Source: Thermoplasmatales archaeon (GTDB lineage: Archaea > Thermoplasmatota > E2 > DHVEG-1). From it: a stretch of DNA of 62,238 nucleotides. Location of the stretch: NCBI GenBank assembly GCA_020341795.1, contig CP070836.1, positions 765,439-827,676 of the forward strand, given 5' to 3'. The notes beneath the pieces were generated by a model. The model had not been told where the DNA came from. It did no database searches and saw only the letters and a list, made by a program, of their open reading frames with translations. The position numbers and the translations under genes were made by a program. Shown piece after piece: positions 10,631 to 38,366 of the stretch. How positions within the stretch are numbered: the first letter of the stretch is position 1; every line of letters starts with the position of its first letter.

Positions 10631-10650
10631 ATGACAAAATGAAAAAAATA
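10631..10650 (-). terminator. Oligo-T tract downstream of the last gene of the large minus-strand cluster
   Basis: On the minus strand a T7 run (10642-10648) lies about 45 nt after the stop at 10692. Archaeal terminators are typically oligo-T. Confidence 0.3.
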
Positions 10651-10691
10651 TGGGTTTTAAACCATAGGTGTTTTAATTTGATTTGTATATT

Positions 10692-11057
10692 TTATTTTTT
10701 ATCAGGAAATCTTGGTACTGTTGCTTTTGAAATTTCCTTTAACTTTCCTTGTTCAAATTGTTTGATAGCATCTGTTATTTTTCCTTTAGCCTGGTATACC
10801 TTTATCCCATAGCGTTTAAATATTTCAAATGCTCTTGGACCGATATTTTCAGTAATTACAGCATCAATTCCTTCATTTGCAACTATTTGACCAACCATTG
10901 CTCCAATTTCACTTGGATTTTCTCTGATTGTGTTAAAAATTGCTTTTAGTGAATTGGTTTCTTTATCTACAATCAGGAAGAATGCACATCTATGAATTGT
11001 AGTATCAATATTACTATACTCTATTGTATTTCCTGTTGAACTTATACATATTTTCAT
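10692..11057 (-). CDS. NifB/NifX-family (dinitrogenase FeMo-cofactor-binding fold) protein
   Basis: 121 aa; GIDAVITENIGPRAFEIFKRYGIKVY is typical of NifX/NifB C-terminal domain proteins. Confidence 0.75.
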   Translation of the reverse strand: MKICISSTGNTIEYSNIDTTIHRCAFFLIVDKETNSLKAIFNTIRENPSEIGAMVGQIVANEGIDAVITENIGPRAFEIFKRYGIKVYQAKGKITDAIKQFEQGKLKEISKATVPRFPDKK

Positions 11058-11089
11058 TTTTTATAACCTCTTCTATCCAATTACATTAA

Positions 11090-14000
11090 TTATTTACCTA
11101 AGGCTTTAATCATTGATAATATCTGTCCATCTGTAAATCCAAGATGACTAATTGCACCGTTTAGACAGGCAGCAGAACATGAACCACATCCCTTACAGAG
11201 AGCCTCATTTACTTTTGCTACTAATACCCTATGGCCAAATCGATTGACTTCTTTAAGTTCAATGGCCTTATATGGACATGCATCTACACAGAAACCACAT
11301 CCGCGACATAATTCTTCATTTACATTTGCAACAGTTGCTTCGATTTCTAGTTGTTTTTTAGATAGAATGTCACATACTCTTGATGCAGCACCACTGGCTT
11401 GTGCAACAGTATCAGGTACATCCTTTGGACCCTGACAACAACCTGCTAAAAATATTCCATCTGTAAATGTATCAACTGGTCTAAGTTTTGGATGCGCTTC
11501 TAAGAAGAATCCATCTGCACTCTGATTTATATTTAAAATCCTAGCAAGAGCAATATTATCTTTTCGTGGGATAATACCAGTAGCTAAAACCACCAGGTCT
11601 GCTTTAGTATCAGGATGTCCCTTTGCTCTGACTATAACTTTCCCATTTTTCTTAGTAACCTTTATAGGATCATTTAGATCTCTACGTCGATAGGTGATTC
11701 CTTCACCTTGAACACGGTTGTAGAATTCTTCATATCCTTTTCCAAATGCACGCATATCAGTATAATAAATTGTTAGTTTTGAATTTGGAATTTTATCTCT
11801 GACCATGTGAGCCTGTTTTGCAGTATACATACAACAAACACGTGAACAATACTCATTGGTCTCTTTATCACGAGAACCTACACATTGAATGAATACAACA
11901 TTCTTTGGTTCCTTTCCATCTATTTGGATGTGCCCTTCTGTAGGTCCTGATGCTGAAACTAATCGTTCAAATTCAAGCCCTGAAATTACATTTTTATATT
12001 TGTTATATCCATATTCTGGTTTAGCTATTGGATCAAATAAATCAAAACCAGTTGCTACAACAATTGCACCAATATCTAGATTTACTATTTCCTCCTGAGC
12101 GTTATGGATAATTGCATCTGCTTCACAGGTTGTTTCACATTGTTTACAAATTGAACAAACATTACAACTCAAGCATCTTTGTGCTTCTTTAACTGCCATC
12201 TCCTCAGTTAATTCAAGCTCGACTTCCTTGAAGTTATGAATTCTATCTTTAACCGGGAGTTCAGGAAGCTTTACACGAGGTTTTTTCTCAAACTCACGTT
12301 CAGGTAAGGGTGCCACTATTGGTTCTTTTACGATTCGGCCTTTTTTCATGTCCTCACCTCGAAGATATCGATCAATTGATGTTGCAGCCTCATGGCCTTT
12401 TGCTATCGCGGTTATAACTAGACCAGGACCTTCAACTGCATCACCCGCCGCAAAAATACCAGGTACATTTGTTTCCTGTGTAATTCCATCGACTTGAAGT
12501 AATCCACCCTTAGTTACAAGAACACCATCACCAGCTTTTAACAATGTAAAATCAACTTCTTGCCCAATAGCAACAATAACTGAATCCGCCTCGATAATTG
12601 ACTCGGTTTCGGGGACTACCTGTGGATTAAAATTCCCATCTTTATCAAACACTGAACTGCAATTAATAGTTTCCAATCCAACAACCTTTCCTTCAACACC
12701 AAGGATTCTTTTTGGCATGAGACGAGGATGAATAACAACACCTTCTTCTTCAGCCTCTCGAATTTCATAATCAAAAGCTGGCATTTCTTCTCGAGACTCA
12801 ACACAGACAACATGAGTTTCTTTTGCACCAATTCGAACTGCTGAACGAGCAACATCAAATGCAACATTTCCTCCACCAATAACAACAACCTTTTTCCCCA
12901 GTTCTATCTTTTCGCCAACACTAAGTGCTCTTAAAAATGCAGTGAAGCCAAACACTCCTTTTAATTCAAGATGTTCTGTTGCAATTGGTATGACACCATT
13001 TTCTCGAAGTTCAATATTTACATGTGTTTCTGCAAGTGATGAAAGCATCGACATCTGACCAATTGCTGAGATTACGATATCTGCATCTAAGGTAAATGTC
13101 GATCCCAGGATAGGTACTGGTCGTCGTCTCCCAGTATCATCAGGTTCACCAAGTTTCATTCGTTGACATTCAATTCCAATAACCTTTCCCTTATCTCCTA
13201 ATATTTTCTTTGGAGCTGAAAGGTAATAAAATGAGATTCCTTCTTTTTCACAATCTTCTAATTCAGATTTCAATGCAGGAATTTCCGCCCTTGTTCTACG
13301 ATAAATAACAAATGCGGATTTTGCACCTAAACGGACAGCTGTTCGAACAGAATCAAGCGCAACATTTCCACCACCAATTACGGCAACAATTTTATCTTTG
13401 AAATCCAATTTTTTTCCGATACGTGTATCATGCAAAAATCCTGATGCATGAACAACACCTGTTAAATCTTCACCTTCGACACCTAAACGTTTACTTTTAT
13501 GTGTTCCTATCGCAATAAAAATTGCTTCATATCCGGCTTTTTTAAGATCCTTTAAGGTAAGATCAGGGCCAATTGGTGTATTTGTCCGGATTTCAACACC
13601 AGCTTGTTTAATTCGTTCTATATCATAATCAAGGATGTCCTCTGGTAACCGATACTTAGGCACACCAACACGTAACATACCACCAGATTTAGATAGTGCT
13701 TCGAATACCGTAGGTTTATATCCTTTCAAAGCAAGGTCATATGCAACAGTCAAACCTGCTGGACCAGCTCCCACGATAGCTACCTTTTTACCAGCCACAG
13801 GATTTATTTCTTCTTCTTCTTTCTCAGTGTCTTTTTCTTTTTTTGTCTCTTTCTTTTTTGTTTTATTACCGTGTTTCATCTCCCAATCTGATGCAAATCT
13901 TTTTAATGCTCTTACTGCAACTGCTTCATCGATATCCTTTCGATTGCAATTTTCCTCACAGACATGGGTACAAATCCGACCACATACACTTGGGAAGGGA

Positions 14001-14974
14001 TTGTTCTCACGAACTAAATCAATAGCCTCTTGAAATTTTCCTTCACGAATAAGAGCTACATATCCTTGAGCATTTACACCAGCAGGACATGCATTAACAC
14101 ATGGTGGAATACCAATCTTATCAATTGTATATTTCTGAGGCACCGCTTGTGGAAACGGAATATAAATTGCTTTTCTATCACCCTGACCCATATTAAACTC
14201 ATCTTCTAATATCACAGGGCATTCTTTAGTACATTCACCACAACCTGTACATTTATCCATGTCTATATATCTAGGTTTCTTACGAACTTGTACATTGAAA
14301 TTACCAACGTAACCTTCAATTCCCGCAACTTCTGAATACGTAAGTAGCTCAATATTAGGATGACGTGCAACATTAACCATCTTTGGTGTCAATATACATG
14401 CTGAACAGTCCATAGTTGGAAAAGTCTTATCTAGTTGTGCCATTCGCCCACCAATGCTAGGTGTTTTTTCTACAAGATATGTTTTAAATCCCATATCTCC
14501 GATGTCAAGTGCTGCTTGAATTCCAGCAATACCACCACCAATTACCATAGCAGTTGGTGTTACACCTACTTTCTTTTTCTCAAGAGGTGATGAAAGAGAA
14601 GTATTAAGAACAGCACTCTTAATTAAAGAAAATGCTTTTTTGGTTGCTTTTTCCCGATCTTTATGGACCCAAGAACATTGCTCTCTGATGTTAACCATTG
14701 TTAAAAAATATGGATTAACATCCATATCTTCAAGAACAGCTCGGAAAGTTGGTTCATGCATTCGGGGACTACAAGACGCTACAATGACACGGTCTAATTT
14801 CTTTTCTTTTATATCATTTTTAATTAGTTCTTGCCCAGGATCTGAACACATATACTTATAAAATCGGCTAACTGCTACGTTTGGTAATAATTTTGCTTGT
14901 TCTGCTATTTTTTCAACATCAACAGTTGCAGCTATGTTAACTCCACATTCACAAACATAAACTCCTATTTTCAT
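11090..14974 (-). CDS. hdrA: HdrA-type flavoprotein with an embedded GltD/NfnB-like NAD(P)H oxidoreductase module (1294 aa)
   Basis: HdrA N-terminal domain (YVCECG...ASCSPRMHEP...REQCSWVH), FAD motif VIGGGIAGIQAAL, and TFPTMDCSACIL. Residues about 287-932 (nt 12179-14116) are GltD-like: CVNACPAG...NPFPSVCGRICTHVCEENC, VGAGPAGL, and two GGGNVA(L/F)D Rossmann motifs. The HdrA core then resumes (VATGFDLFDP, FIQCVGSRD, YCSRVCCMY) and ends in C-terminal 2x[4Fe-4S] motifs. Confidence 0.85.
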   Translation of the reverse strand: MKIGVYVCECGVNIAATVDVEKIAEQAKLLPNVAVSRFYKYMCSDPGQELIKNDIKEKKLDRVIVASCSPRMHEPTFRAVLEDMDVNPYFLTMVNIREQCSWVHKDREKATKKAFSLIKSAVLNTSLSSPLEKKKVGVTPTAMVIGGGIAGIQAALDIGDMGFKTYLVEKTPSIGGRMAQLDKTFPTMDCSACILTPKMVNVARHPNIELLTYSEVAGIEGYVGNFNVQVRKKPRYIDMDKCTGCGECTKECPVILEDEFNMGQGDRKAIYIPFPQAVPQKYTIDKIGIPPCVNACPAGVNAQGYVALIREGKFQEAIDLVRENNPFPSVCGRICTHVCEENCNRKDIDEAVAVRALKRFASDWEMKHGNKTKKKETKKEKDTEKEEEEINPVAGKKVAIVGAGPAGLTVAYDLALKGYKPTVFEALSKSGGMLRVGVPKYRLPEDILDYDIERIKQAGVEIRTNTPIGPDLTLKDLKKAGYEAIFIAIGTHKSKRLGVEGEDLTGVVHASGFLHDTRIGKKLDFKDKIVAVIGGGNVALDSVRTAVRLGAKSAFVIYRRTRAEIPALKSELEDCEKEGISFYYLSAPKKILGDKGKVIGIECQRMKLGEPDDTGRRRPVPILGSTFTLDADIVISAIGQMSMLSSLAETHVNIELRENGVIPIATEHLELKGVFGFTAFLRALSVGEKIELGKKVVVIGGGNVAFDVARSAVRIGAKETHVVCVESREEMPAFDYEIREAEEEGVVIHPRLMPKRILGVEGKVVGLETINCSSVFDKDGNFNPQVVPETESIIEADSVIVAIGQEVDFTLLKAGDGVLVTKGGLLQVDGITQETNVPGIFAAGDAVEGPGLVITAIAKGHEAATSIDRYLRGEDMKKGRIVKEPIVAPLPEREFEKKPRVKLPELPVKDRIHNFKEVELELTEEMAVKEAQRCLSCNVCSICKQCETTCEADAIIHNAQEEIVNLDIGAIVVATGFDLFDPIAKPEYGYNKYKNVISGLEFERLVSASGPTEGHIQIDGKEPKNVVFIQCVGSRDKETNEYCSRVCCMYTAKQAHMVRDKIPNSKLTIYYTDMRAFGKGYEEFYNRVQGEGITYRRRDLNDPIKVTKKNGKVIVRAKGHPDTKADLVVLATGIIPRKDNIALARILNINQSADGFFLEAHPKLRPVDTFTDGIFLAGCCQGPKDVPDTVAQASGAASRVCDILSKKQLEIEATVANVNEELCRGCGFCVDACPYKAIELKEVNRFGHRVLVAKVNEALCKGCGSCSAACLNGAISHLGFTDGQILSMIKALGK

Positions 14975-14987
14975 AGCATCATTCCCC

Positions 14988-16934
14988 CTAGCCTACAAGT
15001 CCTCCTATTTGAGCAAGTAGTTGTTTCATATCAAAATGTTTCATTGAAATACAACCAGTTGGGCATGCTGATGCACATGAACCGCATCCTTTACATAGCA
15101 CATCATTTACCCGCATTATTTTATCTTTTTCATCAAACTCAAGAGCAGAATATGCACAGAGATCTTCACATATTCGGCATCCGCTACATAAATCTTCATC
15201 AATGTTTGCAGAAATTGCTTCTACCTCTACTTTACCTGCTGCAAGTGGCTCAGCTGCTCTAACCGCTGCACCACTAGCTTGTGCAACAGCATCAGGGATA
15301 TCCTTTGGACTTTGACAACAACCTGCTAAAAATATTCCATCTGTAAATGTATCAACTGGTCTAAGCTTTGGATGTGCCTCTAGGAAGAATCCATCTGCAC
15401 TCTGGTTGATATTTAAAATCCTAGATAACTCCTTTGAATCTTTTCTTGGTATTATACCCGTTGCAAGTACTACAAGGTCTGCTTCAATATCAGGATGCCC
15501 CTTGGCTTTTACAACGACTCTGTCACCTTGCTTGTTAACCTTTATAGGATCACCAAGATCTCTACGTCGATAGGTGATTCCTTCTCCTTGAACACGATTG
15601 TAGAATTCTTCAAAACCTTTACCGAAAGCTCGAACATCTGTAAAATAAATTATTAAATCTGCATCTGGAATTTTATCTTTTACCATATGAGCTTGTTTTG
15701 CAGTATACATACAACAAACACGGGAACAATACTCATTAGTCTCTTTATCACGAGAACCCACACATTGAATAAATACAACTTTTTTTGGTTTTTTACCATT
15801 AATTTCAACGTGCCCTTCTGTGGGTCCTGATGCTGAAACTAATCGTTCAAATTCAAGACCTGTAATAACATTATCATATTGACCATAACCATATTCTGCT
15901 TTTTTAGCAGGATCGAACAACTCGTAACCTGTAGCAACCACAATTGTCCCAACTTCAACTTCTACAATTTCTTCTTTCTGATCAAAATCTATTGCATTTC
16001 TATCATCACATGCTTCAATACATAAAGCATGGTCACCACATTTACCAGTTTTGAGAGTTATACAAGTTTCAGGATCGATGGTATATTTAAGTGGAACAGA
16101 TTGTGGAAATGGAACATAAATAGCACTACGTTTACTCATTTTCATGTCAAATTCATTTGGTATTCTATTGTGAAGCCTACAGGCTTCAGCACATGCTCCG
16201 CATCCAACACATTTCTCAATGTCAACATATCTAGGTTTCTTTTTAATTTTCACTTTGAAATTACCTATATATCCTTCAACATCTTGCACTTCTGAATAGG
16301 TAAAAAGTTCAATATTTGGATGACGTGCTACATCCACCATTTTAGGCGTAAGTATACATGCAGAACAGTCCATAGTGGGAAAAGTCTTATCAAGTTGAGC
16401 CATATGTCCACCGATACTTGGGTTTCGTTCTACAAGATACACCTTAAAACCTTTTTCTGCAATCTCAAGGGCTGCCTGAATTCCAGCGATACCCCCACCC
16501 ACAACAAGTGCTCGTGGAATTACACTTACTTCCTTTTTTTCAAGAGGTTCTAAAAAAGTTGCTCTTGCAACTGCTCCTTCAACTAAATGCTTAGCTTTTG
16601 CAGTTGCTCTGTCTTTGTCCTCATGAACCCATGAGCAATGTTCTCGTAGATTAACCATTTCAAAATAGTATGGATTCATACCCATATCCTCTAGAACAGC
16701 TCTGAAAGTAGGCTCGTGCATTCGTGGACTACACGATGCAACTACAACTCGATCTAATTTCATCTCTTTGATATCTTTTTTTATTAGCTCTTGTCCAGGA
16801 TCAGAACACATATATTTATAAAAACGAGCAACTTCTACACTAGGTAAGGTACTTGCGTATTTTACTACTTCTTCAACATCAACTGTTTGAGAAATATTGA
16901 TTCCACATTGACAGATATATACACCAATTTTCAT
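14988..16934 (-). CDS. hdrA: Heterodisulfide reductase subunit A (canonical length, 648 aa)
   Basis: All HdrA hallmarks are present: N-terminal Cys domain, VVGGGIAGIQAAL, TFPTMDCSACIL, inserted ferredoxin motifs, FIQCVGSRD, YCSRVCCMY and a C-terminal ferredoxin domain. Confidence 0.9.
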   Translation of the reverse strand: MKIGVYICQCGINISQTVDVEEVVKYASTLPSVEVARFYKYMCSDPGQELIKKDIKEMKLDRVVVASCSPRMHEPTFRAVLEDMGMNPYYFEMVNLREHCSWVHEDKDRATAKAKHLVEGAVARATFLEPLEKKEVSVIPRALVVGGGIAGIQAALEIAEKGFKVYLVERNPSIGGHMAQLDKTFPTMDCSACILTPKMVDVARHPNIELFTYSEVQDVEGYIGNFKVKIKKKPRYVDIEKCVGCGACAEACRLHNRIPNEFDMKMSKRSAIYVPFPQSVPLKYTIDPETCITLKTGKCGDHALCIEACDDRNAIDFDQKEEIVEVEVGTIVVATGYELFDPAKKAEYGYGQYDNVITGLEFERLVSASGPTEGHVEINGKKPKKVVFIQCVGSRDKETNEYCSRVCCMYTAKQAHMVKDKIPDADLIIYFTDVRAFGKGFEEFYNRVQGEGITYRRRDLGDPIKVNKQGDRVVVKAKGHPDIEADLVVLATGIIPRKDSKELSRILNINQSADGFFLEAHPKLRPVDTFTDGIFLAGCCQSPKDIPDAVAQASGAAVRAAEPLAAGKVEVEAISANIDEDLCSGCRICEDLCAYSALEFDEKDKIMRVNDVLCKGCGSCASACPTGCISMKHFDMKQLLAQIGGLVG

Positions 16935-16950
16935 ATCTTATCCCAAACCT

Positions 16951-17790
16951 CTATCTTTCACCTTGAAGTTTTTTTAACTCTCTATATGAAAACACAGGTC
17001 CATCTTTACACACATAAAGATTTCCAATATTACATCGGCCACATTTACCTATTCCACATTTCATTCTCATCTCAAGTGTGGTAAAGATTTGGTCATCGTT
17101 AAATCCAAGTTTTTCCAAGTTTTGAATTACAAATTTAATCATAATAGGTGGACCACAGGTTACTGCAATTGTGTTTTTAGGGGATGGTTTAACCTTTAGA
17201 AGGTTGTCAGGTACGAATCCTACAAACTTTTTCCAACCATCCTCTTTTACATCAATTGATAGATGAACACTCACATCTTTACGTTTCTCAAGCTCAGCAA
17301 ACTCATCTTTAAATGAAATATCCTCTGTGGTTCTTGCACCATAGATTACATCCAATTTCCCATAGTCTTTCTTGTTATCAAGTACATAGTCTATTAGACA
17401 TCTCAATGGTGCTTGTCCTATTCCACCGCCAATGAATACTATGTTTTTTCCTTTCCAACCTTTCATATCAAAATTATTGCCATATGGGCCCCGTACACCT
17501 ACAACATCACCTACTTCTGCTTCATGGAGTGCTTTTGTTACTTTTCCATGTCGCATTACACTTACTTCAATGTACCCTTTTTTAGTTGGTGAAGAAGAAA
17601 TAGCAAACATACATTCTCCTTTTCCAAGTAAGCTTACCATTGCACATTGACCAGGTTGAAACATAAAATTATTCTGCAAATTTTTATCCTGAAACTTCAG
17701 TCTAAAGGTTTTTATTGCTCTTTCGCCTCCAACTTCTTCTTTTATATTTTCTATAGTTGCGAGATTTGGTTGATATGGATTTTCGCTCAT
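16951..17790 (-). CDS. FAD/NAD(P)-binding [2Fe-2S] oxidoreductase subunit (FlxA / HydG / AsrB / PyrK-like)
   Basis: 279 aa; GGGIGQAPL NAD(P) motif and C-terminal CGIGKCGRC cluster motif. Confidence 0.75.
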   Translation of the reverse strand: MSENPYQPNLATIENIKEEVGGERAIKTFRLKFQDKNLQNNFMFQPGQCAMVSLLGKGECMFAISSSPTKKGYIEVSVMRHGKVTKALHEAEVGDVVGVRGPYGNNFDMKGWKGKNIVFIGGGIGQAPLRCLIDYVLDNKKDYGKLDVIYGARTTEDISFKDEFAELEKRKDVSVHLSIDVKEDGWKKFVGFVPDNLLKVKPSPKNTIAVTCGPPIMIKFVIQNLEKLGFNDDQIFTTLEMRMKCGIGKCGRCNIGNLYVCKDGPVFSYRELKKLQGER

Positions 17791-18806: not shown

Positions 18807-18817
18807 TACATATCACC

Positions 18818-20223: not shown

Positions 20224-20225
20224 AC

Positions 20226-23094: not shown

Positions 23095-23095
23095 C

Positions 23096-23572: not shown

Positions 23573-23583
23573 TTTTTTTCCTT

Positions 23584-26042: not shown

Positions 26043-26076
26043 ATAATCACCAATTTCTATTCGATTTTAATCTATT

Positions 26077-26958: not shown

Positions 26959-26963
26959 AATAT

Positions 26964-30300: not shown

Positions 30301-30631
30301 CTAGTTTCACCATCGCTCCACCAATAGTTGATGTTTTATCTATAATAACGACTTTATATCCTTTATCAGCAGTATCAAGTGCTGCTTGCATTCCTGAAAT
30401 TCCTGCTCCAACAACAAGTACATCAGCGTTAATTACGCGTTTTTTTATTTTTTCTGCTCTTTGTGTAACTGTTTGAATTGTACTTTCTAGTTGTGGTGCA
30501 TCTTTGTTTTCAATTATTTCCTCTGGTTCTTCGTAGAAATAATCATCTTCTAACGGAATACCAAGATCATGGTCTTTTTTCTTATCGTAAGTCTTTAAGG
30601 GCATTTTTTCCTGCCTCAAAACCTCTTTCAA
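27386..30631 (-). CDS. hdrA: Single-chain tandem HdrA (two HdrA-type flavin modules, 1081 aa)
   Basis: Module 1 (about aa 66-490): VVGAGISGMQAAL, TFPTNDCSIC, inserted ferredoxin motifs, WIQCVGSR and YCSRVCCMY. Module 2 (about aa 510-1081): HdrA N-terminal Cys domain (YVCHCG...AACSPR...RNHCSWVH), IIGGGISGMKAAL and a C-terminal ferredoxin domain. The 5' end overlaps korC by 50 nt, or 23 nt if the second ATG is used. Confidence 0.85.
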   Translation of the reverse strand: MKEVLRQEKMPLKTYDKKKDHDLGIPLEDDYFYEEPEEIIENKDAPQLESTIQTVTQRAEKIKKRVINADVLVVGAGISGMQAALDTADKGYKVVIIDKTSTIGGAMVKLDKTFPTNDCSICTAAPKMVELSRHPNIELITYAGINNLQGKPGKFKAQIWRKSKYVDPDKCTGCDDCAEVCPVEIVNPFDEKLSTRKAIYIEFPQAVPIVYTIDYDACIGCGSCDRVCEPEAISFLEKSEEIEVNVGSVILATGFEVFEPTEMRKEYGYGKYDNVITALQFERLLSSFGPTEGKVKRLSDAKIPKSIGWIQCVGSRSEQLGFPYCSRVCCMYATKEASIAKEANPDIDITIYYMDIRAYGKDFQQYYDHAKDLGVKYIRGRPSSVYENKDKSLTIKYKDTLTGEIKEDTVEMLVLSTAIKPNEENKRLGEALGIEVDENGFFKQQELLTDPIQSTREGVFLAGCIQGPKDIPDSVSMASGAAAKAVAPIKDRERHIGKEFPPEKDVKGKKPRIGVYVCHCGKNVANYLDVEKVTEEAKKLPNVEHAEHIMFVCSEDSCKKIKEAIEGKKLNRIIVAACSPRTHGGLFQDTLMEAGLNKYLFEMANIRNHCSWVHSDDWDAATEKAIRLVRSSVAKARGLEALSEEEFSIYPATLIIGGGISGMKAALALADMGIKSIIVEKEKQLGGRLTNLHSMFPSDTKTEDILNPIINKIKKNKLITVMTDSELDKLEGYIGNYKGTIKQKGKTMEIEFGTIIVATGFREIDLKGKYEYGKNDNIISQTELETKIKANKLKEPKNVVMINCAGAMEEERPYCCRVGCGVAIKNAKLISQKYPKSKIYMLYRDMRVFGKEEEEYFAEVLKKHHVTMIRYPGDKKPGIILDKKDPKKGSVSVKVYDDILNEEMTLPADLLVLTVNTEGGAATEKLKNMLKVPVDAAGFFIETHAKIKPLDFSTSGVYMCGAAHYPKNLVDSIAQAEGAASRAAIPIAQEKMKGEGIVSEVNEALCRGCGLCESACAYSAIEMKPHPQDPSRMLAEVNRALCKGCGSCAAACLSSAIEQKGYKSDQINVMIAALCEKGKAK

Positions 30632-31127
30632 ATGCTTTTATATTCAACTCTGTGAACCTTTTTGGAACACTATCAATAACTGATTCTTTTACTGCTTCTG
30701 GTTTTAACAATCCTGAAATACTTGTGAAAGCCCCAACCATAACAATATTTGTTACAATTTTATTCCCAAGTTCTTCTGCAATTTTAAGAGCTTGTACTTT
30801 ATATAGAGGCCGTCCGATTTCATGTTTTTTTACAAGATCGGGATCTACAACAATAACTGTATCATCGCGTATATCATCTCTATAGCTATCAAATGATTCT
30901 TGAGACATAGCTAACAAGATATCAACGCTTAATGGTCTAGGATAACCGATTTTTTTATCAGAAATAATGATTTCTGATCTTGCAGCCCCACCGCGCGCCT
31001 CAGGACCATATGATTGGCTCTGTACAGCATGATAGTTTTCAAATACAGATGCAGCTTTGCCAATGATGAAGCCTGCAAGGATTACTCCTTGTCCACCGAA
31101 ACCACAGATTCGTATTTCTTTTTTCAT
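30582..31127 (-). CDS. korC: 2-oxoglutarate:ferredoxin oxidoreductase gamma subunit
   Basis: GFGGQGVILAG...GPEARGG motif typical of OFOR gamma subunits; 181 aa. Confidence 0.8.
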   Translation of the reverse strand: MKKEIRICGFGGQGVILAGFIIGKAASVFENYHAVQSQSYGPEARGGAARSEIIISDKKIGYPRPLSVDILLAMSQESFDSYRDDIRDDTVIVVDPDLVKKHEIGRPLYKVQALKIAEELGNKIVTNIVMVGAFTSISGLLKPEAVKESVIDSVPKRFTELNIKAFERGFEAGKNALKDLR

Positions 31128-32005
31128 TTTTTACCCTCTCTTTTTTTATTTTCTTCTACCTTTAGACGTTCCATAAGTTGATCATATAGCTCAAAGAAAC
31201 CAGGTTTCTGGATATCCTGGAAAACTCCAATTTGCATCTTGTCTTTAACTTCTTCTTTTTCTTTTACAGATCCGTATTTCATAATTTTATCGTAATCTTC
31301 TATAAGAATAGTGTTGTCATCATACCACGCCCAATGTTTTTTGATATCTCCAAGTTTATTTCTTCGGCCATATGCAGTTGGGCATGGTGCCAGAAATTCT
31401 AAAAGTGAGAAACCCTTCTTTTGTAGTCCTTCTTTGATAGATTTAATTGGCTGATAGGGATGAGAAACAGGCCAGCGTGCTACATAGTTTGCACCTAGTG
31501 CTTTTGCTAGTTCACAAATATCAAATGGATGTTCGATATTTCCATATGGTGCAGTAGTTGCAATACTTCCAAGAGGTGCTGTTGGTGCTAACTGACCTCC
31601 AGTCATACCATAAATAAAGTTGTTAATCATAATAACAGTCATATCTATATTACGTCGCGCTGCATGAATAAAGTGATTACCACCAATACCTGCACAATCA
31701 CCATCTCCAGTGAAAACAATAACGTTGAAATCTGGATCTGCTGCTTTTATACCTGTTGCAAATGCGATTGCTCGTCCATGTGTTGTATGTAGACCATCAG
31801 CATTTATGTATCCGGGTAGGCGGGATGAACACCCGATACCTGAGGCAAACATTGTTTTATCCATATCCCATCCTAATTCTTCTAATGCCCAAAAGGTATA
31901 TTCAAGGACTACTCCATGACCACAGCCATTACAAAATATGGTAGGCCACATGCCTTCTCTGAGGAATTTTTTATTTAATTCTTCTGCTGTTTTTACTTCT
32001 ACCAT
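31124..32005 (-). CDS. korB: 2-oxoglutarate:ferredoxin oxidoreductase beta subunit (TPP-binding)
   Basis: FCNGCGHG and GDGDCAGIGGNH TPP motifs. The start is trimmed to the ATG at 32005 (MVEVKT), one nt after the korA stop. The longer track ORF would overlap korA by 125 nt. Confidence 0.8.
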   Translation of the reverse strand: MVEVKTAEELNKKFLREGMWPTIFCNGCGHGVVLEYTFWALEELGWDMDKTMFASGIGCSSRLPGYINADGLHTTHGRAIAFATGIKAADPDFNVIVFTGDGDCAGIGGNHFIHAARRNIDMTVIMINNFIYGMTGGQLAPTAPLGSIATTAPYGNIEHPFDICELAKALGANYVARWPVSHPYQPIKSIKEGLQKKGFSLLEFLAPCPTAYGRRNKLGDIKKHWAWYDDNTILIEDYDKIMKYGSVKEKEEVKDKMQIGVFQDIQKPGFFELYDQLMERLKVEENKKREGKK

Positions 32006-32006
32006 T

Positions 32007-33191
32007 TTATTTCGCCTCCAAGTATTTATAGACCTCATCAGGATAGTGTATTTCACCACCGATTTTTGGTGCACATATAACTTCACAATTACCATTAGCA
32101 GCTTCACGAATAGGGTGAACCATCTGTCCAAGGTTCATCTCTGGTACAATTATTTTGTCTACCTGTTTCGCCAATTTGTGTACTTCTTTTTCTGGGACTG
32201 GCCAGACTATTTTCAATCTAAGCATACCAACTTTGATACCGTTTTTTCTACCCATTTCCATTGCTGATTCTGTTGGTCGCGCAGAGGCTCCATATGTGAC
32301 GAAAGCGATCTCTGCATCATCCAGATTAAATTTTTCAACACTGACAAGTTTATCTGCGTCATCAATGATTTTTTCAGTAATTCTTTTTACAAGCCTTTCA
32401 TGATCTGGTTGTTTATCTGTTGCGGGAAAACCTTTTTCGTTATGTGTCAGTCCTGTTACATAAGTTCTATATCCTGTTCCAAAAGTGGGAAAATCAGGCA
32501 CTTTACAATTTTTCCTTGTTTGTGAGTTCGTAAACGGGATAAATTTCTTTTTGTCAATAGTGGCTTCAACTCGGTCAATAAGTTTTAGATCCTTTTCTTC
32601 TGGAATAATAATCCTTTCTCTAAGATGACCTACTTCCCCATCAGTCATTACAAGTGCGGGATTACGGTATTTTTCTGATAGATTGAAAGCTTCTATAGTG
32701 AAATCCATACATTCCTGTACAGTACTTGGAGCAAAAGCTATTGCCTCGAAATCTCCATGTGTTCCCCATCGAGCTTGCATCATATCCCCTTGTGCACCAA
32801 GAGTTGGTTGACCAGTTGAAGGTCCAGTTCTTTGGACATTAACTATAACACATGGTGTTTCGGTCATTGCTGCAAATCCATAGTTTTCCATCATTAGTGA
32901 AAATCCTGGACCTGATGTTGCAGTCATTGATTTTGCACCACCCCATGCTGCACCAATTACTGCAGCGATGCTTCCAATTTCATCTTCCATTTGGATATAT
33001 GTCCCCCCAACTCGTGGTAGTCTTCGAGCCATACCTTCAGCAACTTCAGAAGCAGGAGTTATTGGATATCCTCCAAAAAATGAGCATCCTGCTAGTAATC
33101 CACCATAGACACAAGCCATATCTCCAAGTATAAATTGGACTTTTTTTCCTAAAACTTGACGTATCCGTTTAGGATCTCGTTTGTATTTCAT
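32007..33191 (-). CDS. korA: 2-oxoglutarate:ferredoxin oxidoreductase alpha subunit
   Basis: 394 aa; GYPITPASE and TSGPGFSLM motifs typical of OFOR alpha subunits. Confidence 0.8.
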   Translation of the reverse strand: MKYKRDPKRIRQVLGKKVQFILGDMACVYGGLLAGCSFFGGYPITPASEVAEGMARRLPRVGGTYIQMEDEIGSIAAVIGAAWGGAKSMTATSGPGFSLMMENYGFAAMTETPCVIVNVQRTGPSTGQPTLGAQGDMMQARWGTHGDFEAIAFAPSTVQECMDFTIEAFNLSEKYRNPALVMTDGEVGHLRERIIIPEEKDLKLIDRVEATIDKKKFIPFTNSQTRKNCKVPDFPTFGTGYRTYVTGLTHNEKGFPATDKQPDHERLVKRITEKIIDDADKLVSVEKFNLDDAEIAFVTYGASARPTESAMEMGRKNGIKVGMLRLKIVWPVPEKEVHKLAKQVDKIIVPEMNLGQMVHPIREAANGNCEVICAPKIGGEIHYPDEVYKYLEAK

Positions 33192-33448
33192 TTTTTAATT
33201 CCTCCTACAGGACTTAGTAGGGTTTTTTTCTCAACTTTTTTAATATCTTCATCTGGGATAACAGATATTGCTAGATCTGGACATATGAGTTCGCAGTATC
33301 TGCAATAATTACATTCATTTTCTTTTTTCAATTGAGGGGGTCGAATTCCTCTTTTGTTTAATTTATCTGACTCTTCTAAAGCATCGACTGGACATCGGTC
33401 GATGCAGATGTTGCATCCTTTGCACCAGTCGTCTTTTACTTCAATCAT
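33188..33448 (-). CDS. korD: 2-oxoacid:ferredoxin oxidoreductase delta subunit (2x[4Fe-4S] ferredoxin)
   Basis: CKGCNICIDRCP and CNYCRYCELICP motifs. The preferred start is the ATG at 33448, preceded by GGTGA. The alternative ATG at 33475 would overlap the upstream gene. Confidence 0.75.
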   Translation of the reverse strand: MIEVKDDWCKGCNICIDRCPVDALEESDKLNKRGIRPPQLKKENECNYCRYCELICPDLAISVIPDEDIKKVEKKTLLSPVGGIKK

Positions 33449-33461
33449 TAATTCACCATTT

Positions 33462-35108
33462 TTAGAATATATCAAGGGCTCGAGAAATTGTCATTTCACC
33501 TCTGTATTCCGGTAGAATAATTGGTGCTGTTTTTGTTGGTTTAATTTTCGCTTGTTCGAGCATTTTATTATATTTGTCAAGGTGAGAAAGTGTGAGTTTT
33601 CCGATCTTTGCTTTTTTAACATATTTTGCTGCATATATTCCTGCTCTTCGGCCAAATACGTTGAAATCTAAAAGTGAATTACCCATTAGTCTGTTTTTTC
33701 CATGAACTCCACCTGTAACTTCACCGGCTCCAAATAAACCAGGTAGTTTTGTTTCAGTTTTTTCATTGATTTCTACTCCACCATTTTGATAATGAAGTGT
33801 TGGATAAACAAGAATTGGTATTTTTGTCATATCTATTCCAAATCGCTTGAATTTTCGTACTTCTCCTGCAAGCTTTGACTCTATTGTTCCTTCACCATGT
33901 AATATTTCAATCATAGGGGTATCAAGCCATACACCTGGCATACCTGTAGGTGTTACAATACCACGTCCTTCTTTGCATTCTTTAATGAAAGATGCAGATT
34001 CAACATCACGAGGCTCTAGTGGAAATACAAATGGATCGCCGTTTTTATTAATCGGTATAGCTCCAAGTCCTCTGATTTTTTCAGTAGAAAGAATTCCAAC
34101 TAAAGGTTCTGGATATGCATCACCAGTAGGATGTATCTGAATTGTATCTAGATCAAGAAGATTTGCTCCAGCATGATATGCCATTACTAAACCATCACCA
34201 GTTGCTCCATAATGATTTGTTGTTGGATAATTTGAAAGATGTAATCGTCCACTGCCACCTGTGGCAAGAATTGTAGCTTTGGCACGAATAACATAATATT
34301 CAAATGTTTCAAGGTTGAATGCAACACCACCAGCGACTTGGCCTTTATCATCCATAATTAGCTCTGCTACAGGGCAGAATTCTAAAACAGGAATCTCCAA
34401 GTTTCTAGACTCGTCACGGATGTTTCTCATAATCTCCATACCTGAATAATCCTTACAGCTATGCATACGATTACGACAAGTTCCACCACCAGATAATTCC
34501 TGGAACTCACCATCTTCATGACGATCATACATAACTCCTAAGTCTTCATGCCATTTGATAATACCAGGTGCATCAAGTGCAAGAGCACGAGCAAGCTCTG
34601 GTTTATTTGTAAAATGTCCTCCTCCATAAATATCTAAATAATGCAAAGTTGGATTATCCTCTGGTCGATCAGCTGCTTGAATGCCACCTTGTGCCATCAT
34701 ACTATTTGCATCACCATGTCGCAGTTTTGTAACAATCAAAATCTTATCAAGTGGAACACCAGATTCATATGCAAAAAGGGCTGCAACAGTACCTGCACCG
34801 CCTCCCCCAATTATTAAGAGGTCAACCTCATAATCAATCTTACTAAGATCAACATCTTTAGTATCAAGAACAGGTTTTGCTTCAAGAAGATCAACAAGAC
34901 CGTTATACAGCAATTTGTCTTTATCAATACCAACTCGTAGTTTTCTTTTAGTTCCAACCATGTAATCTGGATGATATTTACTCAGCATTTTTTCTCGATC
35001 TTTAAGTGACATTGGTTTAACTGGTTCGGCCATATTTTTTTCTCGTTTCTTTTCAACTAGTTTTATTGATTTCATCATGTATTCAGGGTAACCTTCTATT
35101 GTTTTCAT
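33462..35108 (-). CDS. Fumarate reductase/succinate dehydrogenase-family flavoprotein (soluble type)
   Basis: LIIGGGGAG dinucleotide fold, MAQGGIQ, IQIHPTG...STEKIRGLG and GLFGAGEVTGGVHGKNRLMGNSLLD. The position of the covalent-FAD His (SHT/SHS in SdhA) reads ANS. There is a roughly 95-aa N-terminal extension. Confidence 0.7.
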   Translation of the reverse strand: MKTIEGYPEYMMKSIKLVEKKREKNMAEPVKPMSLKDREKMLSKYHPDYMVGTKRKLRVGIDKDKLLYNGLVDLLEAKPVLDTKDVDLSKIDYEVDLLIIGGGGAGTVAALFAYESGVPLDKILIVTKLRHGDANSMMAQGGIQAADRPEDNPTLHYLDIYGGGHFTNKPELARALALDAPGIIKWHEDLGVMYDRHEDGEFQELSGGGTCRNRMHSCKDYSGMEIMRNIRDESRNLEIPVLEFCPVAELIMDDKGQVAGGVAFNLETFEYYVIRAKATILATGGSGRLHLSNYPTTNHYGATGDGLVMAYHAGANLLDLDTIQIHPTGDAYPEPLVGILSTEKIRGLGAIPINKNGDPFVFPLEPRDVESASFIKECKEGRGIVTPTGMPGVWLDTPMIEILHGEGTIESKLAGEVRKFKRFGIDMTKIPILVYPTLHYQNGGVEINEKTETKLPGLFGAGEVTGGVHGKNRLMGNSLLDFNVFGRRAGIYAAKYVKKAKIGKLTLSHLDKYNKMLEQAKIKPTKTAPIILPEYRGEMTISRALDIF

Positions 35109-35864
35109 TTAACTACCTCCTTCTTCAGCTTCGATTTTTCTATTTTTGTATAGCTCTTTGATTTCTTGTTTGTTCATTTTAATCATTTTTTCTATTTCTG
35201 AATCATATTTTCTGTTCTCGATTTCTTTTATTCGTTTTGAAAGATTTTTTGACCGTGTATCTATATATTTACCACGAAGTCGTCGGGCTAGTTGTGATAC
35301 ATGATAATGTTTAATATCTGCAGGGCATCTCATTGCACAAAGACCACATTGAATACAGTCAAAGGAGATTTCTGCGCATTTTTCTATGTCTCCTCGAATT
35401 GCTCTTTGGATATATTTCATAACCTCAATATCTTGAGGGCAAGATTTTGAACAAGTATTACAACTAACACACCTGGCTATTTCAGGGTAATACTCAAGTA
35501 TTTTACTTTCTGAAGGTCTTATTTTTTCAATATCATATTCAGCTTTAGCGGCAGGGACAAAAGGAAGTTGAACCAGGTACATTTTATCTTCTACAACTTT
35601 TTGGCAGGCAAGATCAAATCCTAATTTTTGTTCATCTTCAAGTCTATAAATTGTTGAACAAGCACCACAAAAGCCAGCTCTACATCCGCATCCTCTGATA
35701 TATCTGTATCCTGCGTATTCTAAGGCCTTCATTATTGTAAGACCTGCAGGAACTTTGTAGCTTTTTCCCATTATAAAAACTTCTAGAGTTCCAGCTTTTT
35801 TTTCTACATCTTCTGCTTTTTTAACTTCAGGTTCTTCTAATATGACCTGTTCTTTTTTACTCAT
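35109..35864 (-). CDS. Fumarate reductase/succinate dehydrogenase-type iron-sulfur subunit
   Basis: CGCRAGFCGAC ([2Fe-2S]-type), plus CVSCNTCSKSCP and CIQCGLCAMRCP. The start is trimmed to the ATG at 35864, preceded by AGGGGT. The stop abuts the start of the flavoprotein gene. Confidence 0.7.
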   Translation of the reverse strand: MSKKEQVILEEPEVKKAEDVEKKAGTLEVFIMGKSYKVPAGLTIMKALEYAGYRYIRGCGCRAGFCGACSTIYRLEDEQKLGFDLACQKVVEDKMYLVQLPFVPAAKAEYDIEKIRPSESKILEYYPEIARCVSCNTCSKSCPQDIEVMKYIQRAIRGDIEKCAEISFDCIQCGLCAMRCPADIKHYHVSQLARRLRGKYIDTRSKNLSKRIKEIENRKYDSEIEKMIKMNKQEIKELYKNRKIEAEEGGS

Positions 35865-38359: not shown

Positions 38360-38366
38360 AAAAGAT

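Follow-up and report, generated by a model that had tools for sequence, protein, structure and literature searches.

A 22-Gene Cluster of a Thermoplasmatota Archaeon Combines Three MvhD-Linked Donor Modules with HdrA, 2-Oxoacid:Ferredoxin Oxidoreductase, and a Putative Soluble Fumarate Reductase

Gene Content and Organization of the Cluster

The window analyzed in this study is a 62,238-nt stretch of contig CP070836.1 (positions 765,439 to 827,676), and all coordinates below refer to this window. From position 35864 down to position 10692, open reading frame (ORF) listing and translation revealed 22 consecutive, tightly packed genes (~25 kb), all on the minus strand. These genes encode a putative soluble fumarate reductase (FrdAB), a 2-oxoacid:ferredoxin oxidoreductase (KOR), heterodisulfide reductase-type proteins (HdrABC), and three MvhD-linked donor modules, and they can be read as a system for HdrA-centered electron bifurcation in which fumarate would be the high-potential acceptor. 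Domain calls were made with Pfam and NCBIfam profiles; several of the best NCBIfam matches lie below the equivalog cutoffs. A preliminary description of the locus had placed all ORFs of this region on the minus strand and assigned each gene from its letters; the orientation was borne out for the 22 genes, and each assignment was confirmed by Pfam and NCBIfam.

The first gene encodes an FrdB-like Fe-S subunit (35109..35864; Pfam Fer2 and Fer4 families) and the second an FrdA-like soluble flavoprotein (33462..35108; PF00890, 3e-64), for which TfrA is the best NCBIfam match. They are followed by four KOR genes. KorD, the delta subunit with 2x[4Fe-4S] (33188..33475; OGOR_delta, OorD as the best NCBIfam matches), may start at TTG 33475 or at ATG 33448, and its relatives are called at 86 aa. 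KorA, the alpha subunit (32007..33191; Pfam POR_N and PFOR_II), scores above the cutoff of NF006412 with 553 bits. KorB, the thiamine pyrophosphate-binding beta subunit (31124..32005; Pfam TPP_enzyme_C), has the beta subunit of 2-oxoglutarate:ferredoxin oxidoreductase as its best NCBIfam match; according to the junction analysis it starts with ATG at 32005, and the upstream TTG is not used. KorC, the gamma subunit (30582..31127), belongs to the Pfam POR family and matches NF006323 with 220 bits.

Downstream of korC lies the gene for a fused ("type II") tandem HdrA of 1081 aa (27386..30631), which is matched by the NCBIfam profiles HdrA2 and HdrA in 3 stretches and was aligned with 5ODC_A. Next come HdrC with 2x[4Fe-4S] (26964..27389; Pfam Fer4_8 and Fer4_17; TIGR03290, 84 bits) and HdrB with two CCG domains (26077..26958; Pfam CCG twice; TIGR03288, 165 bits; SdhE, 153 bits). 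The hydrogenase set consists of the [NiFe]-hydrogenase small subunit MvhG (25041..26042; Pfam Oxidored_q6), the group 3c-like large subunit MvhA (23584..25044), a hydrogenase maturation endopeptidase (23096..23572; Pfam HycI; TIGR00072, 121 bits, above cutoff), and the first MvhD module (22660..23094; Pfam FlpD, 2e-57; VhuD, 149 bits). It is followed by a GlcD/LctD-like FAD D-2-hydroxyacid dehydrogenase (21236..22663; Pfam FAD_binding_4 and FAD-oxidase_C) and by a fusion of a GlcF N-terminal part, a ferredoxin, and MvhD (20226..21239), recognized by both Pfam and NCBIfam, which carries the second MvhD module.

The third MvhD module is FlxD (19795..20223; Pfam FlpD, 2e-58). It precedes an FlxC-like Fe-S protein (18818..19801; Pfam FrhB_FdhB_C and Fer4 families), an FlxB-like Fe-S protein of the HydB/AsrA type (17787..18806; Pfam Fer4_22; NCBIfam ShyB, HydB, and AsrA), and an FlxA-like protein with NAD(P)H, FAD, and [2Fe-2S] sites (16951..17790; Pfam NAD_binding_1, FAD_binding_6, and DHODB_Fe-S_bind). 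Two further HdrA genes follow, one for a canonical protein of 648 aa with all four domains (14988..16934; 5odc_A, 2.8e-242 over residues 2-646) and one for a "type III" HdrA with a GltD/NfnB-like insert (11090..14974; Pfam Fer4_20 and Pyr_redox_2; NCBIfam GltA/GltD). The last gene encodes a small protein of the NifX/NifB family (10692..11057; PF02579, 7.5e-18), possibly a cofactor or Fe-S carrier to judge from its family, and it is kept at this position in three related loci (L004, L005, and L013).

In transcription order, the 21 junctions between these genes measure 0, -14 (or +13), -4, +1, -4, -50/-23, and -4 nt; then +5, +34, -4, +11, +1, -4, and -4 nt; and finally +2, -7, +11, -4, +16, +13, and +32 nt. 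The value for frdA/korD is -14 nt with the TTG start and +13 nt with the next ATG. Similarly, korC and the tandem hdrA overlap by 23 nt if the latter starts with ATG at 30604 and by 50 nt with TTG at 30631. The gaps of 0-34 nt and the korC/tandem-hdrA overlap of 23-50 nt given in the preliminary description stand, but its range of 4-7 nt for the remaining overlaps misses the possible 14-nt overlap of frdA and korD. A GGAGG-like motif, resembling a Shine-Dalgarno sequence, is present ahead of most start codons.

Because the host is an archaeon, oligo-T runs and motifs resembling the TFB recognition element (BRE) and TATA box were inspected as transcription signals. No run of at least 6 T was found in any intergenic gap of the 22-gene cluster. 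On the sense strand, 5 such runs occur in the 25.2 kb of the cluster vs. 22 in the 21.9 kb of the other window genes, which carry about five-fold more of them. Codon shuffling gave an expectation of 9.9 ± 2.7 for the cluster, so the observed number is also lower than expected. This scarcity is weakly consistent with a long archaeal transcript. A terminator-like short hairpin followed by the only T7 run (10640..10691, minus strand; T7 at ~10648) was found by oligo-T and hairpin inspection directly 3' of nifX. The 22 genes thus apparently form one operon-like unit, for which a single transcription unit can be proposed. G+C content is higher in the cluster (0.35-0.39) than in its flanks (0.29-0.32).

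Upstream of frdB lies an AT-rich divergent control region of 245 nt (35865..36109). It contains two elements kept in relatives: the BRE/TATA-like element CCAAAAAcTTTATA before frdB and, ~30 nt downstream of it, the element TGGGAGGAGCC, after which a TTG comes next. The stretch after TGGGAGGAGCC is probably a 5' leader, because the peptide of the small TTG-initiated ORF (26-40 aa) between TGGGAGGAGCC and frdB is not conserved. This ORF had been considered as a gene and was rejected as non-coding, its peptides varying among relatives. Rfam and tRNA scans of the window gave no matches.

Host Lineage and Conservation of the Locus

Protein matches place the source of the window as a Thermoplasmatota archaeon of the MBG-D/Thermoprofundales type. 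The nearest named homologues belong to Thermoplasmatales/Thermoplasmata archaeon SG8-52-1, SG8-52-3, SG8-52-4, and M9B1D, and to metagenome-assembled genomes (MAGs) called "Thermoplasmatota archaeon." SG8-52-3, SG8-52-4, and M9B1D have been listed among the MBG-D/Thermoprofundales MAGs (PMC6461988).

To compare related loci (labeled L plus a number), genome loci were fetched around the fusion gene and all 22 proteins were compared by tblastn, while metagenome loci were fetched around FrdA; the former cover the korC-to-nifX half of the cluster and the latter the frd half. The order from korC to hdrA/gltD is identical in at least 8 genome loci (L004-L008, L011, L013, and L014), one of them on the closed chromosome CP070724, and extends to nifX where the locus reaches that far. 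In ~35 metagenome contigs longer than 12 kb, sucD-sucC-marR is divergent from frdB-frdA-korDABC-tandem hdrA-hdrC-hdrB-mvhG-mvhA-protease, with FrdA identities of 82-92%. The best 120 FrdA homologues all come from close MBG-D relatives, and the wider spread of the cluster is known from the genome loci alone. Conservation of the gene order among relatives, proposed in the preliminary description as a check, was in this way found in both sets of loci. The arrangement is not due to chance, because the order recurs in at least 8 genome loci and ~35 metagenome contigs. By this comparison, the 22-gene order with its divergent regulator and sucCD is a stable feature of the lineage, present in more than 40 related contigs.

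The regulator in question is of the MarR/TrmB type (36110..37240, plus strand; Pfam). It is always divergent from frdB, a position kept in ~35 contigs. Behind it, sucC and sucD for succinyl-CoA synthetase are always found (37259..39227, plus strand; Pfam and synteny).

A natural variant of the cluster was found in two loci (L012 and L015). Here, flxDCBA-hdrA-hdrA/gltD is swapped for a group-3b-like hydBGDA, and the part comprising Frd, Kor, tandem HdrA, HdrCB, Mvh, and GlcD is kept. The incoming set (~11000-15500 in L012 and ~6000-10300 in L015) consists of flxB-like and flxA-like genes, genes for small and large subunits, and a protease gene, at 27-41% identity. The L012 contig still encodes FrdA (P0329).

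Further Hdr-related genes were observed elsewhere in related genomes. Genomes of this kind (L017-L019) also carry a paralogue of the fusion gene, at 60-63% identity, that is not accompanied by glcD. Its neighbors are genes for a TauE-family exporter and radical-SAM proteins, and after it come mvhD, two genes of a split hdrA, a pair of flxC-like genes, and a further mvhD. In three contigs (L080, L091, and L142; ~2300-5800), additional hdrA (55-57%), hdrB (29-30%), and hdrC genes lie beyond sucD on the opposite strand. The matching position of the window is occupied by a gene for a NosD/beta-helix protein instead.

HdrA Proteins

As stated in the preliminary description, the cluster encodes four HdrA flavin modules in three genes and three MvhD modules together with one HdrBC pair. 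Alignment with 5ODC_A showed that the 648-aa HdrA has a complete set of features: the N-terminal cluster, Cys197, FAD with Lys409 and Glu356, and both the inserted and the C-terminal ferredoxin domains. Equivalents of Lys409 and Glu356 are kept in all four flavin modules.

The two halves of the tandem HdrA differ in what they retain. The first half has the DCSIC motif (Cys197), FAD, and the inserted ferredoxin domain, and is devoid of the N-terminal cluster and C-terminal ferredoxin domains. The second half retains the domain of the N-terminal cluster, FAD, and the ferredoxin domain at the C terminus, and is devoid of Cys197 and the inserted ferredoxin domain. In the scheme applied to these proteins, electrons pass to ferredoxin by way of the N-domain/Cys197 cluster together with the inserted ferredoxin domain. 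The halves are complementary, and under this scheme the tandem protein would have one full entry and one full low-potential exit, that is, one bifurcation unit. A reading of the four HdrA modules as four equivalent bifurcation sites was considered and rejected on the domain complementarity of the tandem HdrA.

The protein called an hdrA-gltD chimera in the preliminary description does contain a GltD module. This module can now be described more precisely as a 645-aa GltD/NfnB-like insertion (residues 287-931) within the inserted ferredoxin domain. Fer4_20 is part of it, as are a motif for FAD binding and two NAD(P)-binding Rossmann subdomains in tandem (residues ~513-655 and ~680-806), which are 40% identical to each other and both contain GGGNVA. 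The sequences that follow this motif, YRRTRAE in one subdomain and VCVESREE in the other, may reflect different nucleotide preferences. The duplication of the subdomain is lineage-specific, because the homologues from SG8-52-3 (L008) and M9B1D (L011) are without residues ~522-704.

Donor Modules and Their MvhD Adaptors

MvhD is the known plug that links donor modules to HdrA, and we know of no other role for MvhD domains. Each of the three MvhD-type adaptors of the cluster adjoins a different donor, namely the [NiFe] hydrogenase, the FAD dehydrogenase resembling GlcD/LctD, and an NAD(P)H unit of the FlxABC type, which confirms the earlier observation that every MvhD sits beside its own donor enzyme. 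Both free MvhD proteins match Pfam FlpD at ~1e-57, and FlxD (19795-20223) scores 173-181 bits with solved MvhD chains. The fused MvhD domain is more divergent (95 bits). It has CNWS (Ser211) vs. CNWC in the free proteins, and the serine is invariant in 13 homologues.

MvhA carries the Ni-binding motifs RICGVCPVAHH and DPCFGCATH in its translation. The best matches of MvhA and MvhG are VhuA (419 bits) and VhuG (227 bits), both below the equivalog cutoffs. As for the Flx unit, the order flxD-C-B-A is also found in ~30 bacterial loci. In the window, hdrA directly follows flxA, and hdrC and hdrB lie ~7 kb upstream in the same co-directional unit.

The GlcD-like protein has both GlcD Pfam domains and matches TIGR00387 with 385 bits, below the 568-bit cutoff. 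Its best match in the PDB is LctD of Ldh-EtfAB (7qh2_C, 3e-80). Its partner, the fusion protein, has at its N terminus a dicluster domain of the GlcF type (residues 20-107), after which come 2x[4Fe-4S] and FlpD; the part beyond the dicluster domain is collinear with positions 559-775 of HdrA2, which cover the C-terminal ferredoxin domain and MvhD. Neither GlcE nor the C-terminal CCG domains of GlcF were found in the GlcD module with Pfam and NCBIfam. By its domain composition, the fusion protein has exchanged the CCG half, the source of autonomy in partners of the GlcF or HdrD type, for a plug to HdrA. No Etf genes are present in the window, and a partner that ends in MvhD implies HdrA as the bifurcating flavoprotein.

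The full-length architecture of GlcF-N, ferredoxin, and MvhD is rare, with ~3-7 clusters among 1.84 billion representatives at 50% identity. In genomes it was found only in these Thermoplasmatota and in one Fermentibacteria MAG. An AlphaFold2 model of the fusion protein, built from a 13-sequence alignment, was poor (mean predicted local distance difference test score 50, only the MvhD part being moderately confident) and yielded no structural conclusion. The locus of the Candidatus Fermentibacteria MAG (L020, 1392-17600) contains larA, glcD (67%), the GlcF/ferredoxin/MvhD gene (52-55%), mvhG, mvhA (61%), and the protease gene, and there is no HdrA within the fetched stretch. This gene set hints at a hydroxyacid-hydrogenase module that is mobile between domains.

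A LarA-family 2-hydroxyacid racemase gene is located near the cluster on the plus strand (7892..9139; Pfam Lar_N and LarA_C). The closest solved relative of its product is the malate racemase Mar2 (6d6z, 4e-63), ahead of lactate racemases. Homologues of larA occur near the cluster at varying positions in other loci as well (L012, L020, L130-L135, and L153), and the racemase is a possible accessory of the cluster. The substrate of the GlcD-like enzyme is predicted to be a D-2-hydroxyacid, with D-lactate and D-malate as candidates.

Fumarate Reductase and HdrCB

The FrdB-like protein contains a [2Fe-2S] motif, two full CxxCxxCxxxCP motifs for 4Fe-4S clusters, and a charged tail; no CCG domain was detected in it by Pfam or NCBIfam. 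The FrdA-like protein has a 92-aa N-terminal extension and is without the C-terminal domain of SdhA. With the TfrA equivalog (cutoff 718 bits) it scores 314 bits, the match covering positions 6-426 of the 546-position profile. The HPT, RG, HY, and NRLxGNSL motifs for dicarboxylate binding and catalysis are kept. The histidine that binds FAD covalently in the SHT motif is replaced by asparagine (GDANSMMAQGG), and the same replacement was found in the homologue from Eubacteriales and in each of 80 archaeal ones from metagenomes. No gene for a membrane anchor is present in the cluster; like the missing histidine, this separates FrdAB from quinol:fumarate reductases and succinate:quinone oxidoreductases.

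In Escherichia coli FrdA, variants of His44 with non-covalently bound FAD allow fumarate reduction and hardly any succinate oxidation. By analogy with that work, and because the covalent-FAD histidine is missing, FrdAB can be read as a one-way soluble fumarate reductase. FrdAB was also considered as a succinate oxidizer, which is unlikely without this histidine.

The acceptor of HdrB was addressed by comparison with methanogen TfrB, in which HdrC-like and CCG domains are fused. The FrdB-like protein is devoid of these parts, which align instead with the separate HdrC and HdrB, so that three cluster proteins tile the TfrB profile: FrdB at 18-83 (weak), HdrC at 125-231, and HdrB at 263-465. In addition, HdrB scores almost equally with SdhE, the CCG subunit of type-E fumarate reductases and MFR anchor (153 bits), and with HdrB itself (165 bits). 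All 10 cysteines of its two CCG motifs are intact in comparison with solved HdrB chains. The tiling and the near-equal scores favor direct transfer from HdrC/B to FrdB over a thiol carrier and point to fumarate, rather than a diffusible disulfide, as the high-potential acceptor. The thiol/disulfide substrate of HdrB, called unidentifiable from the window in the preliminary description, may therefore not exist.

A Core Shared with Bacteria

A related core was found in genomes of Eubacteriales (L032, L036, and L039), Bacteroidota (L022 and L023), and Aminicenantes (L037), with the order hdrC-hdrB-korDABC-hdrA-flxD-flxC-flxB-flxA. In all 3 bacterial core contigs that extend beyond flxA, frdB-frdA comes next. 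The core proteins of the window are 45-62% identical to these bacterial versions. FrdA and FrdB are 55 and 52% identical to the proteins of the Eubacteriales cluster over their full length, including the N-terminal extension of FrdA and the charged tail of FrdB. The bacterial core clusters are without the Mvh and GlcD modules.

The Hdr and Flx proteins are split into corresponding subtypes. The HdrB of the window is 44-47% identical to the Kor/Frd-linked HdrB proteins vs. 32-35% to those of ordinary Flx-Hdr clusters (L025-L052), and its FlxA is 56-62% identical to the Kor/Frd-linked proteins vs. 40-50% to those of ordinary Flx-Hdr clusters. Since the gene linkage is shared and HdrB and FlxA follow the same subtype split, Hdr, Flx, Kor, and Frd travel jointly, as a single evolutionary unit, in Archaea and Bacteria alike. 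The archaeal cluster can accordingly be described as the bacterial core with the Mvh set, the GlcD module, two HdrA forms, and the NifX-like gene added.

Proposed Mechanism and Energetics

We give a probability of roughly 0.5 to an HdrA-centered bifurcation with exchangeable two-electron donors, in which fumarate serves as the high-potential acceptor and ferredoxin delivers electrons to KOR. Four points of this scheme are inferred rather than observed: complex formation, the use of fumarate as acceptor, the direction in which KOR runs, and what the GlcD-like enzyme oxidizes. The donors would be H2 through MvhAG, NAD(P)H through FlxABC and through the GltD module inserted in the third HdrA, and a D-2-hydroxyacid through the GlcD/LctD-like enzyme. 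Their electrons would reach the HdrA flavin via an MvhD-type [2Fe-2S] adaptor, and the flavin would split the electron pair. In the high-potential branch, electrons would pass from HdrC to HdrB and on to soluble FrdAB, reducing fumarate to succinate, and no heterodisulfide of the CoM/CoB type would be needed. In the low-potential branch, ferredoxin would be reduced. Reduced ferredoxin could then drive KorDABC in the formation of 2-oxoglutarate from succinyl-CoA and CO2, after activation of succinate by SucCD; alternatively, it could serve other ferredoxin-dependent reactions. One bifurcation event would provide one succinate and two low-potential electrons, which is what KorDABC would need per 2-oxoglutarate after SucCD. 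The preliminary description had KOR oxidizing 2-oxoglutarate; a ferredoxin-consuming 2-oxoglutarate synthase is at least as likely. Its proposal of interchangeable donors is partly supported, as the natural module swap in two loci fits it.

The standard potentials (E°') relevant to this scheme are ~+30 mV for fumarate/succinate, ~-420 mV for ferredoxin, -414 mV for H2, -320 mV for NADH, -190 mV for lactate/pyruvate, and -140 mV for CoM-S-S-CoB. The mean acceptor potential computed from these values for fumarate and ferredoxin is ~-195 mV. With fumarate as acceptor, the potentials leave H2 and NAD(P)H ample room for reducing ferredoxin and make a lactate-type donor just feasible; were a disulfide the acceptor, such a donor would not be feasible. 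This feasibility with fumarate only provides a rationale for wiring a GlcD/LctD-like enzyme to MvhD and HdrA. The opposite use of succinate and reduced ferredoxin was judged unlikely, since their mean potential of ~-200 mV is too positive for the reduction of NAD+ or protons. In MBG-D MAGs, the genes for HdrA(GltD-like), the alpha subunit of 2-oxoglutarate synthase, and a hydrogenase are among those with the highest transcription (PMC6461988, Table 3).

Several points weigh against this scheme. The frdBA and hdrCB genes are not adjacent, korDABC and the tandem hdrA lying between them, and the literature searched contains no biochemical or structural evidence for contact between Frd and Hdr. 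With a single HdrBC pair against two potential HdrA dimers, part of the machinery may use another acceptor. The intact CCG motifs of HdrB would allow a thiol/disulfide carrier; in methanogens such motifs perform disulfide chemistry. The specificity of KOR is taken from best matches that fall below equivalog cutoffs in 3 of 4 subunits, and the single transcription unit is itself deduced from sequence. MBG-D archaea are thought to be peptide fermenters, which make rather than need reduced ferredoxin, and in the window flanks, genes for peptidases and an aminotransferase occur together with those for an aldehyde:ferredoxin oxidoreductase and a second 2-oxoacid oxidoreductase. Operation in reverse, by confurcation with release of H2, is plausible in such a setting.

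Confurcation of this kind was weighed as an explanation of the whole cluster. In a peptide or lactate fermenter, electrons from ferredoxin and from NAD(P)H or lactate would merge at HdrA and leave as H2 via Mvh, with fumarate as an auxiliary sink. Besides the proteolytic and fermentative surroundings (C25 and C10 peptidases, aminotransferase, aldehyde:ferredoxin oxidoreductase, and second 2-oxoacid:ferredoxin oxidoreductase), it would fit the published metabolism of MBG-D (PMC6461988), the closeness of the GlcD-like protein to LctD of a confurcating complex, and the NADH-linked H2 production proposed for type III HdrA beside mvhADG (PMC12054007). It leaves the cross-domain linkage with FrdAB and sucCD unexplained, however, and the bacterial core exists without any hydrogenase. 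Moreover, Flx and Mvh both enter by MvhD-type mid-potential ports, so a path from NADH to H2 via one flavin is not obvious, and the missing covalent-FAD histidine disfavors succinate oxidation; we regard this explanation as unlikely. Slightly better placed, though still rather doubtful, is a co-regulated "redox island" of independent enzymes that share one promoter, with no hub and no Frd-Hdr complex: a standard Mvh-Hdr acting on a disulfide, a separate NAD(P)H:ferredoxin system made of Flx and HdrA, a D-lactate dehydrogenase working by itself, and KOR and Frd of a branched tricarboxylic acid (TCA) pathway. The modularity seen in the hydrogenase swap of L012/L015 and in bacterial clusters without Mvh and GlcD speaks for it, as do the additional Hdr/MvhD clusters elsewhere in the same genomes (L017-L019, L080, L091, and L142) and an HdrB with complete disulfide-type CCG motifs. 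Such independence is at odds with a 22-gene order that is invariant in dozens of contigs at FrdA identities of 82-95% and with the cross-domain Hdr-Flx-Kor-Frd linkage and its matching HdrB subtype. It is also at odds with the only known role of MvhD, the plugging of a donor into HdrA, and with a GlcD partner that has lost the CCG half conferring autonomy and gained ferredoxin and MvhD.

Two other explanations concern the step between HdrB and fumarate. HdrBC might reduce a small-molecule or protein disulfide, the thiol of which would then reduce fumarate, as in methanogens with TfrAB and Mvh-Hdr. This was the first option named for the related gammaproteobacterial cluster (PMC6315080), and it agrees with TfrA as the best NCBIfam match of FrdA and with the intact CCG motifs. 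But the FrdB-like protein is without CCG, so that Frd would have no thiol-oxidizing site of its own; HdrB is the sole CCG protein of the cluster; and no gene for DsrC, a GcvH-like protein, or CoM/CoB biosynthesis was found among the window proteins scanned. We consider thiol mediation the least probable of the explanations weighed here. At the other extreme, the 22 products might form one or two soluble megacomplexes, in which three chemically different donors dock on HdrA via their own MvhD plugs and neither output needs a free carrier, HdrCB passing electrons straight to FrdAB and the low-potential branch feeding KorDABC, so that fumarate is converted to 2-oxoglutarate within a self-contained module. 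Two corollaries would follow: the GlcF/ferredoxin/MvhD fusion would supply in trans the C-terminal ferredoxin domain absent from the first half of the tandem HdrA, and FrdB, HdrC, and HdrB would have in methanogen TfrB a fused descendant or a fused relative. Assembly on that scale seems improbable, if less so than the thiol carrier. The HdrA-centered bifurcation with exchangeable donors and fumarate as acceptor is the favored reading.

Flanking Genes and Wider Significance

The flanks of the window (724-3839, 6184-7725, and 40950-49675) encode two C25 (gingipain-type) peptidases and a C10 peptidase, an aminotransferase, and an aldehyde:ferredoxin oxidoreductase, as well as a homoserine-dehydrogenase-like protein and a second 2-oxoacid:ferredoxin oxidoreductase. 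By their predicted functions, these genes are typical of a protein degrader. Near the end of the window, positions 60001-62000 have a G+C content of 0.22 and an AT skew of +0.43, and a 693-aa ORF lies on the plus strand at 59380-61461.

In marine and estuarine sediments, MBG-D/Thermoprofundales rank with the most abundant archaea, and to our knowledge none of them has been cultured. In the Thermoprofundales paper, which barely mentions Hdr, frdAB was not found in any MAG and a TCA cycle running only oxidatively was inferred (PMC6461988). Divergent FrdAB, annotated as "FAD-binding protein" or "succinate dehydrogenase/fumarate reductase flavoprotein," was found here in dozens of contigs of the MBG-D type (L075-L154). 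Two genomes analyzed in that paper, M9B1D (L011) and SG8-52-3 (L008), carry the korC-to-hdrA/gltD part of the cluster; frdBA precedes korDABC in every related contig that is long enough, the frd regions of M9B1D and SG8-52-3 lying outside the comparison. The cluster thus corrects the published view that frdAB is absent, in that the lineage carries a divergent, putatively soluble fumarate reductase, and the FrdAB-bearing cluster is probably its central redox-balancing machinery.

Should fumarate be the high-potential acceptor, the question of which "unknown disulfide" HdrABC reduces in non-methanogens would have an answer for this family. Energy could be conserved from fumarate reduction without a quinone, and reduction of ferredoxin would come within thermodynamic reach of a lactate-type donor. 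As a compact natural system, the cluster also lends itself to tests of whether donors are interchangeable on HdrA cores, and the cross-domain core supplies cultivable bacterial relatives in which the proposed bifurcating fumarate reductase could be tested.

Comparison with Known Systems

All six subunit types of the MvhADG-HdrABC complex of methanogens (PDB 5ODC and later entries) and their cofactor motifs are also found in the window. Unlike in methanogens, the HdrA beside hdrCB and mvh is a fused pseudo-heterodimer, and the host is not a methanogen. HdrB (165 vs. the 345-bit cutoff) and HdrC (84 vs. the 160-bit cutoff) both fall below the equivalog cutoffs, no mcr or CoM/CoB genes are present in the window, and the lineage has been described as non-methanogenic (PMC6461988); the acceptor of this HdrB is probably not CoM-S-S-CoB. 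The Hdr of Methanococcus maripaludis, which binds either the Vhu hydrogenase or formate dehydrogenase (as cited in PMC9012536), is a precedent for alternative donors on one Hdr, but the window has three chemically different donors, each with its own MvhD, in one operon.

FlxABCD-HdrABC of Desulfovibrio vulgaris (Ramos et al., 2015), as it is cited in PMC6315080 and PMC7282089, has the same flxDCBA set next to hdrA, with NAD(P)H as donor via the MvhD-like FlxD. The window differs in context, no adh or dsrC being found among its proteins scanned with Pfam and NCBIfam, and in its HdrB subtype (32-35% identity to ordinary Flx-Hdr clusters). In Ldh-EtfAB of Acetobacterium woodii (PDB 7QH2, PMC9232219), an FAD lactate dehydrogenase is coupled to a bifurcating/confurcating flavoprotein, as is proposed here for the GlcD-like enzyme; its partner in the window is an Fe-S protein ending in MvhD instead of EtfAB.

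Fused (type II) and GltD/NfnB-inserted (type III) HdrA have already been described (PMC9012536, PMC12054007). The HdrA proteins of the window follow the same logic as those of anaerobic methanotrophic archaea (ANME), methanogens, and Bathyarchaeota, with a complementary N-domain and Cys197 and with GltD placed in the ferredoxin domain. In the fused HdrA of the window, however, the Cys197 half comes first and the N-domain half second, opposite to HdrA3/4 of ANME (PMC9012536), and this reversed order may reflect an independent fusion event. The HdrA/GltD protein further differs from described type III HdrA by its duplicated NAD(P)-binding subdomain, and the host, a Thermoplasmatota archaeon that does not metabolize methane, differs from the described hosts of both types.

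The closest described arrangement is korABCD-tfrAB-flxABCD-hdrABC of Gammaproteobacteria, namely tubeworm symbionts and Thioflavicoccus mobilis (Rubin-Blum et al., 2019; PMC6315080), which has the same four sets in one orientation. The proposal made for it, in the text and Supplementary Note 3 of PMC6315080, is that bifurcation supplies both 2-oxoglutarate synthase and the reduction of fumarate. In contrast to these Gammaproteobacteria with a reductive TCA cycle, no ATP-citrate lyase or other genes of that cycle were found in the window. Likewise, the "succinate operon" of Pseudoclostridium thermosuccinogenes combines soluble FrdAB with Flx-Hdr and was proposed to encode a bifurcating fumarate reductase; as presented in PMC7282089 and the preprint cited there, it includes fumarase and no Kor, hydrogenase, or GlcD module. 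These two systems were compared by their descriptions, and the alignments given above are with proteins of Eubacteriales, Bacteroidota, and Aminicenantes. The bifurcation hypothesis for Kor-Frd/Tfr-Flx-Hdr hence dates from 2019-2020 (PMC6315080, PMC7282089), and in the literature searched no biochemical proof was found for any member. No prior description of the full archaeal cluster was found in the literature covered, which did not extend to subscription journals. The earlier statement that no such combined system had been described consequently holds for the full archaeal assembly, but not for the combination of Kor, Frd/Tfr, FlxABCD, and HdrABC.

Mvh-Hdr, Flx-Hdr, type II and III HdrA, KOR, soluble Frd, and GlcD/LctD-like dehydrogenases are all of known kinds. 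Beyond the gammaproteobacterial set, the window adds Mvh with its protease, the GlcD/LctD-like enzyme with its MvhD-fused partner, the fused HdrA, the GltD-inserted HdrA, and the NifX-like protein. New in this comparison are the archaeal 22-gene assembly with an Mvh hydrogenase, kept across an abundant uncultured lineage, and the rare GlcF-N/ferredoxin/MvhD fusion that would plug a hydroxyacid dehydrogenase into HdrA. Also new are the co-occurrence in one unit of three MvhD modules, each wired differently, with three HdrA architectures, and the sequence arguments that suggest fumarate as the acceptor: the split TfrB, the loss of the covalent-FAD histidine, and the HdrB subtype.

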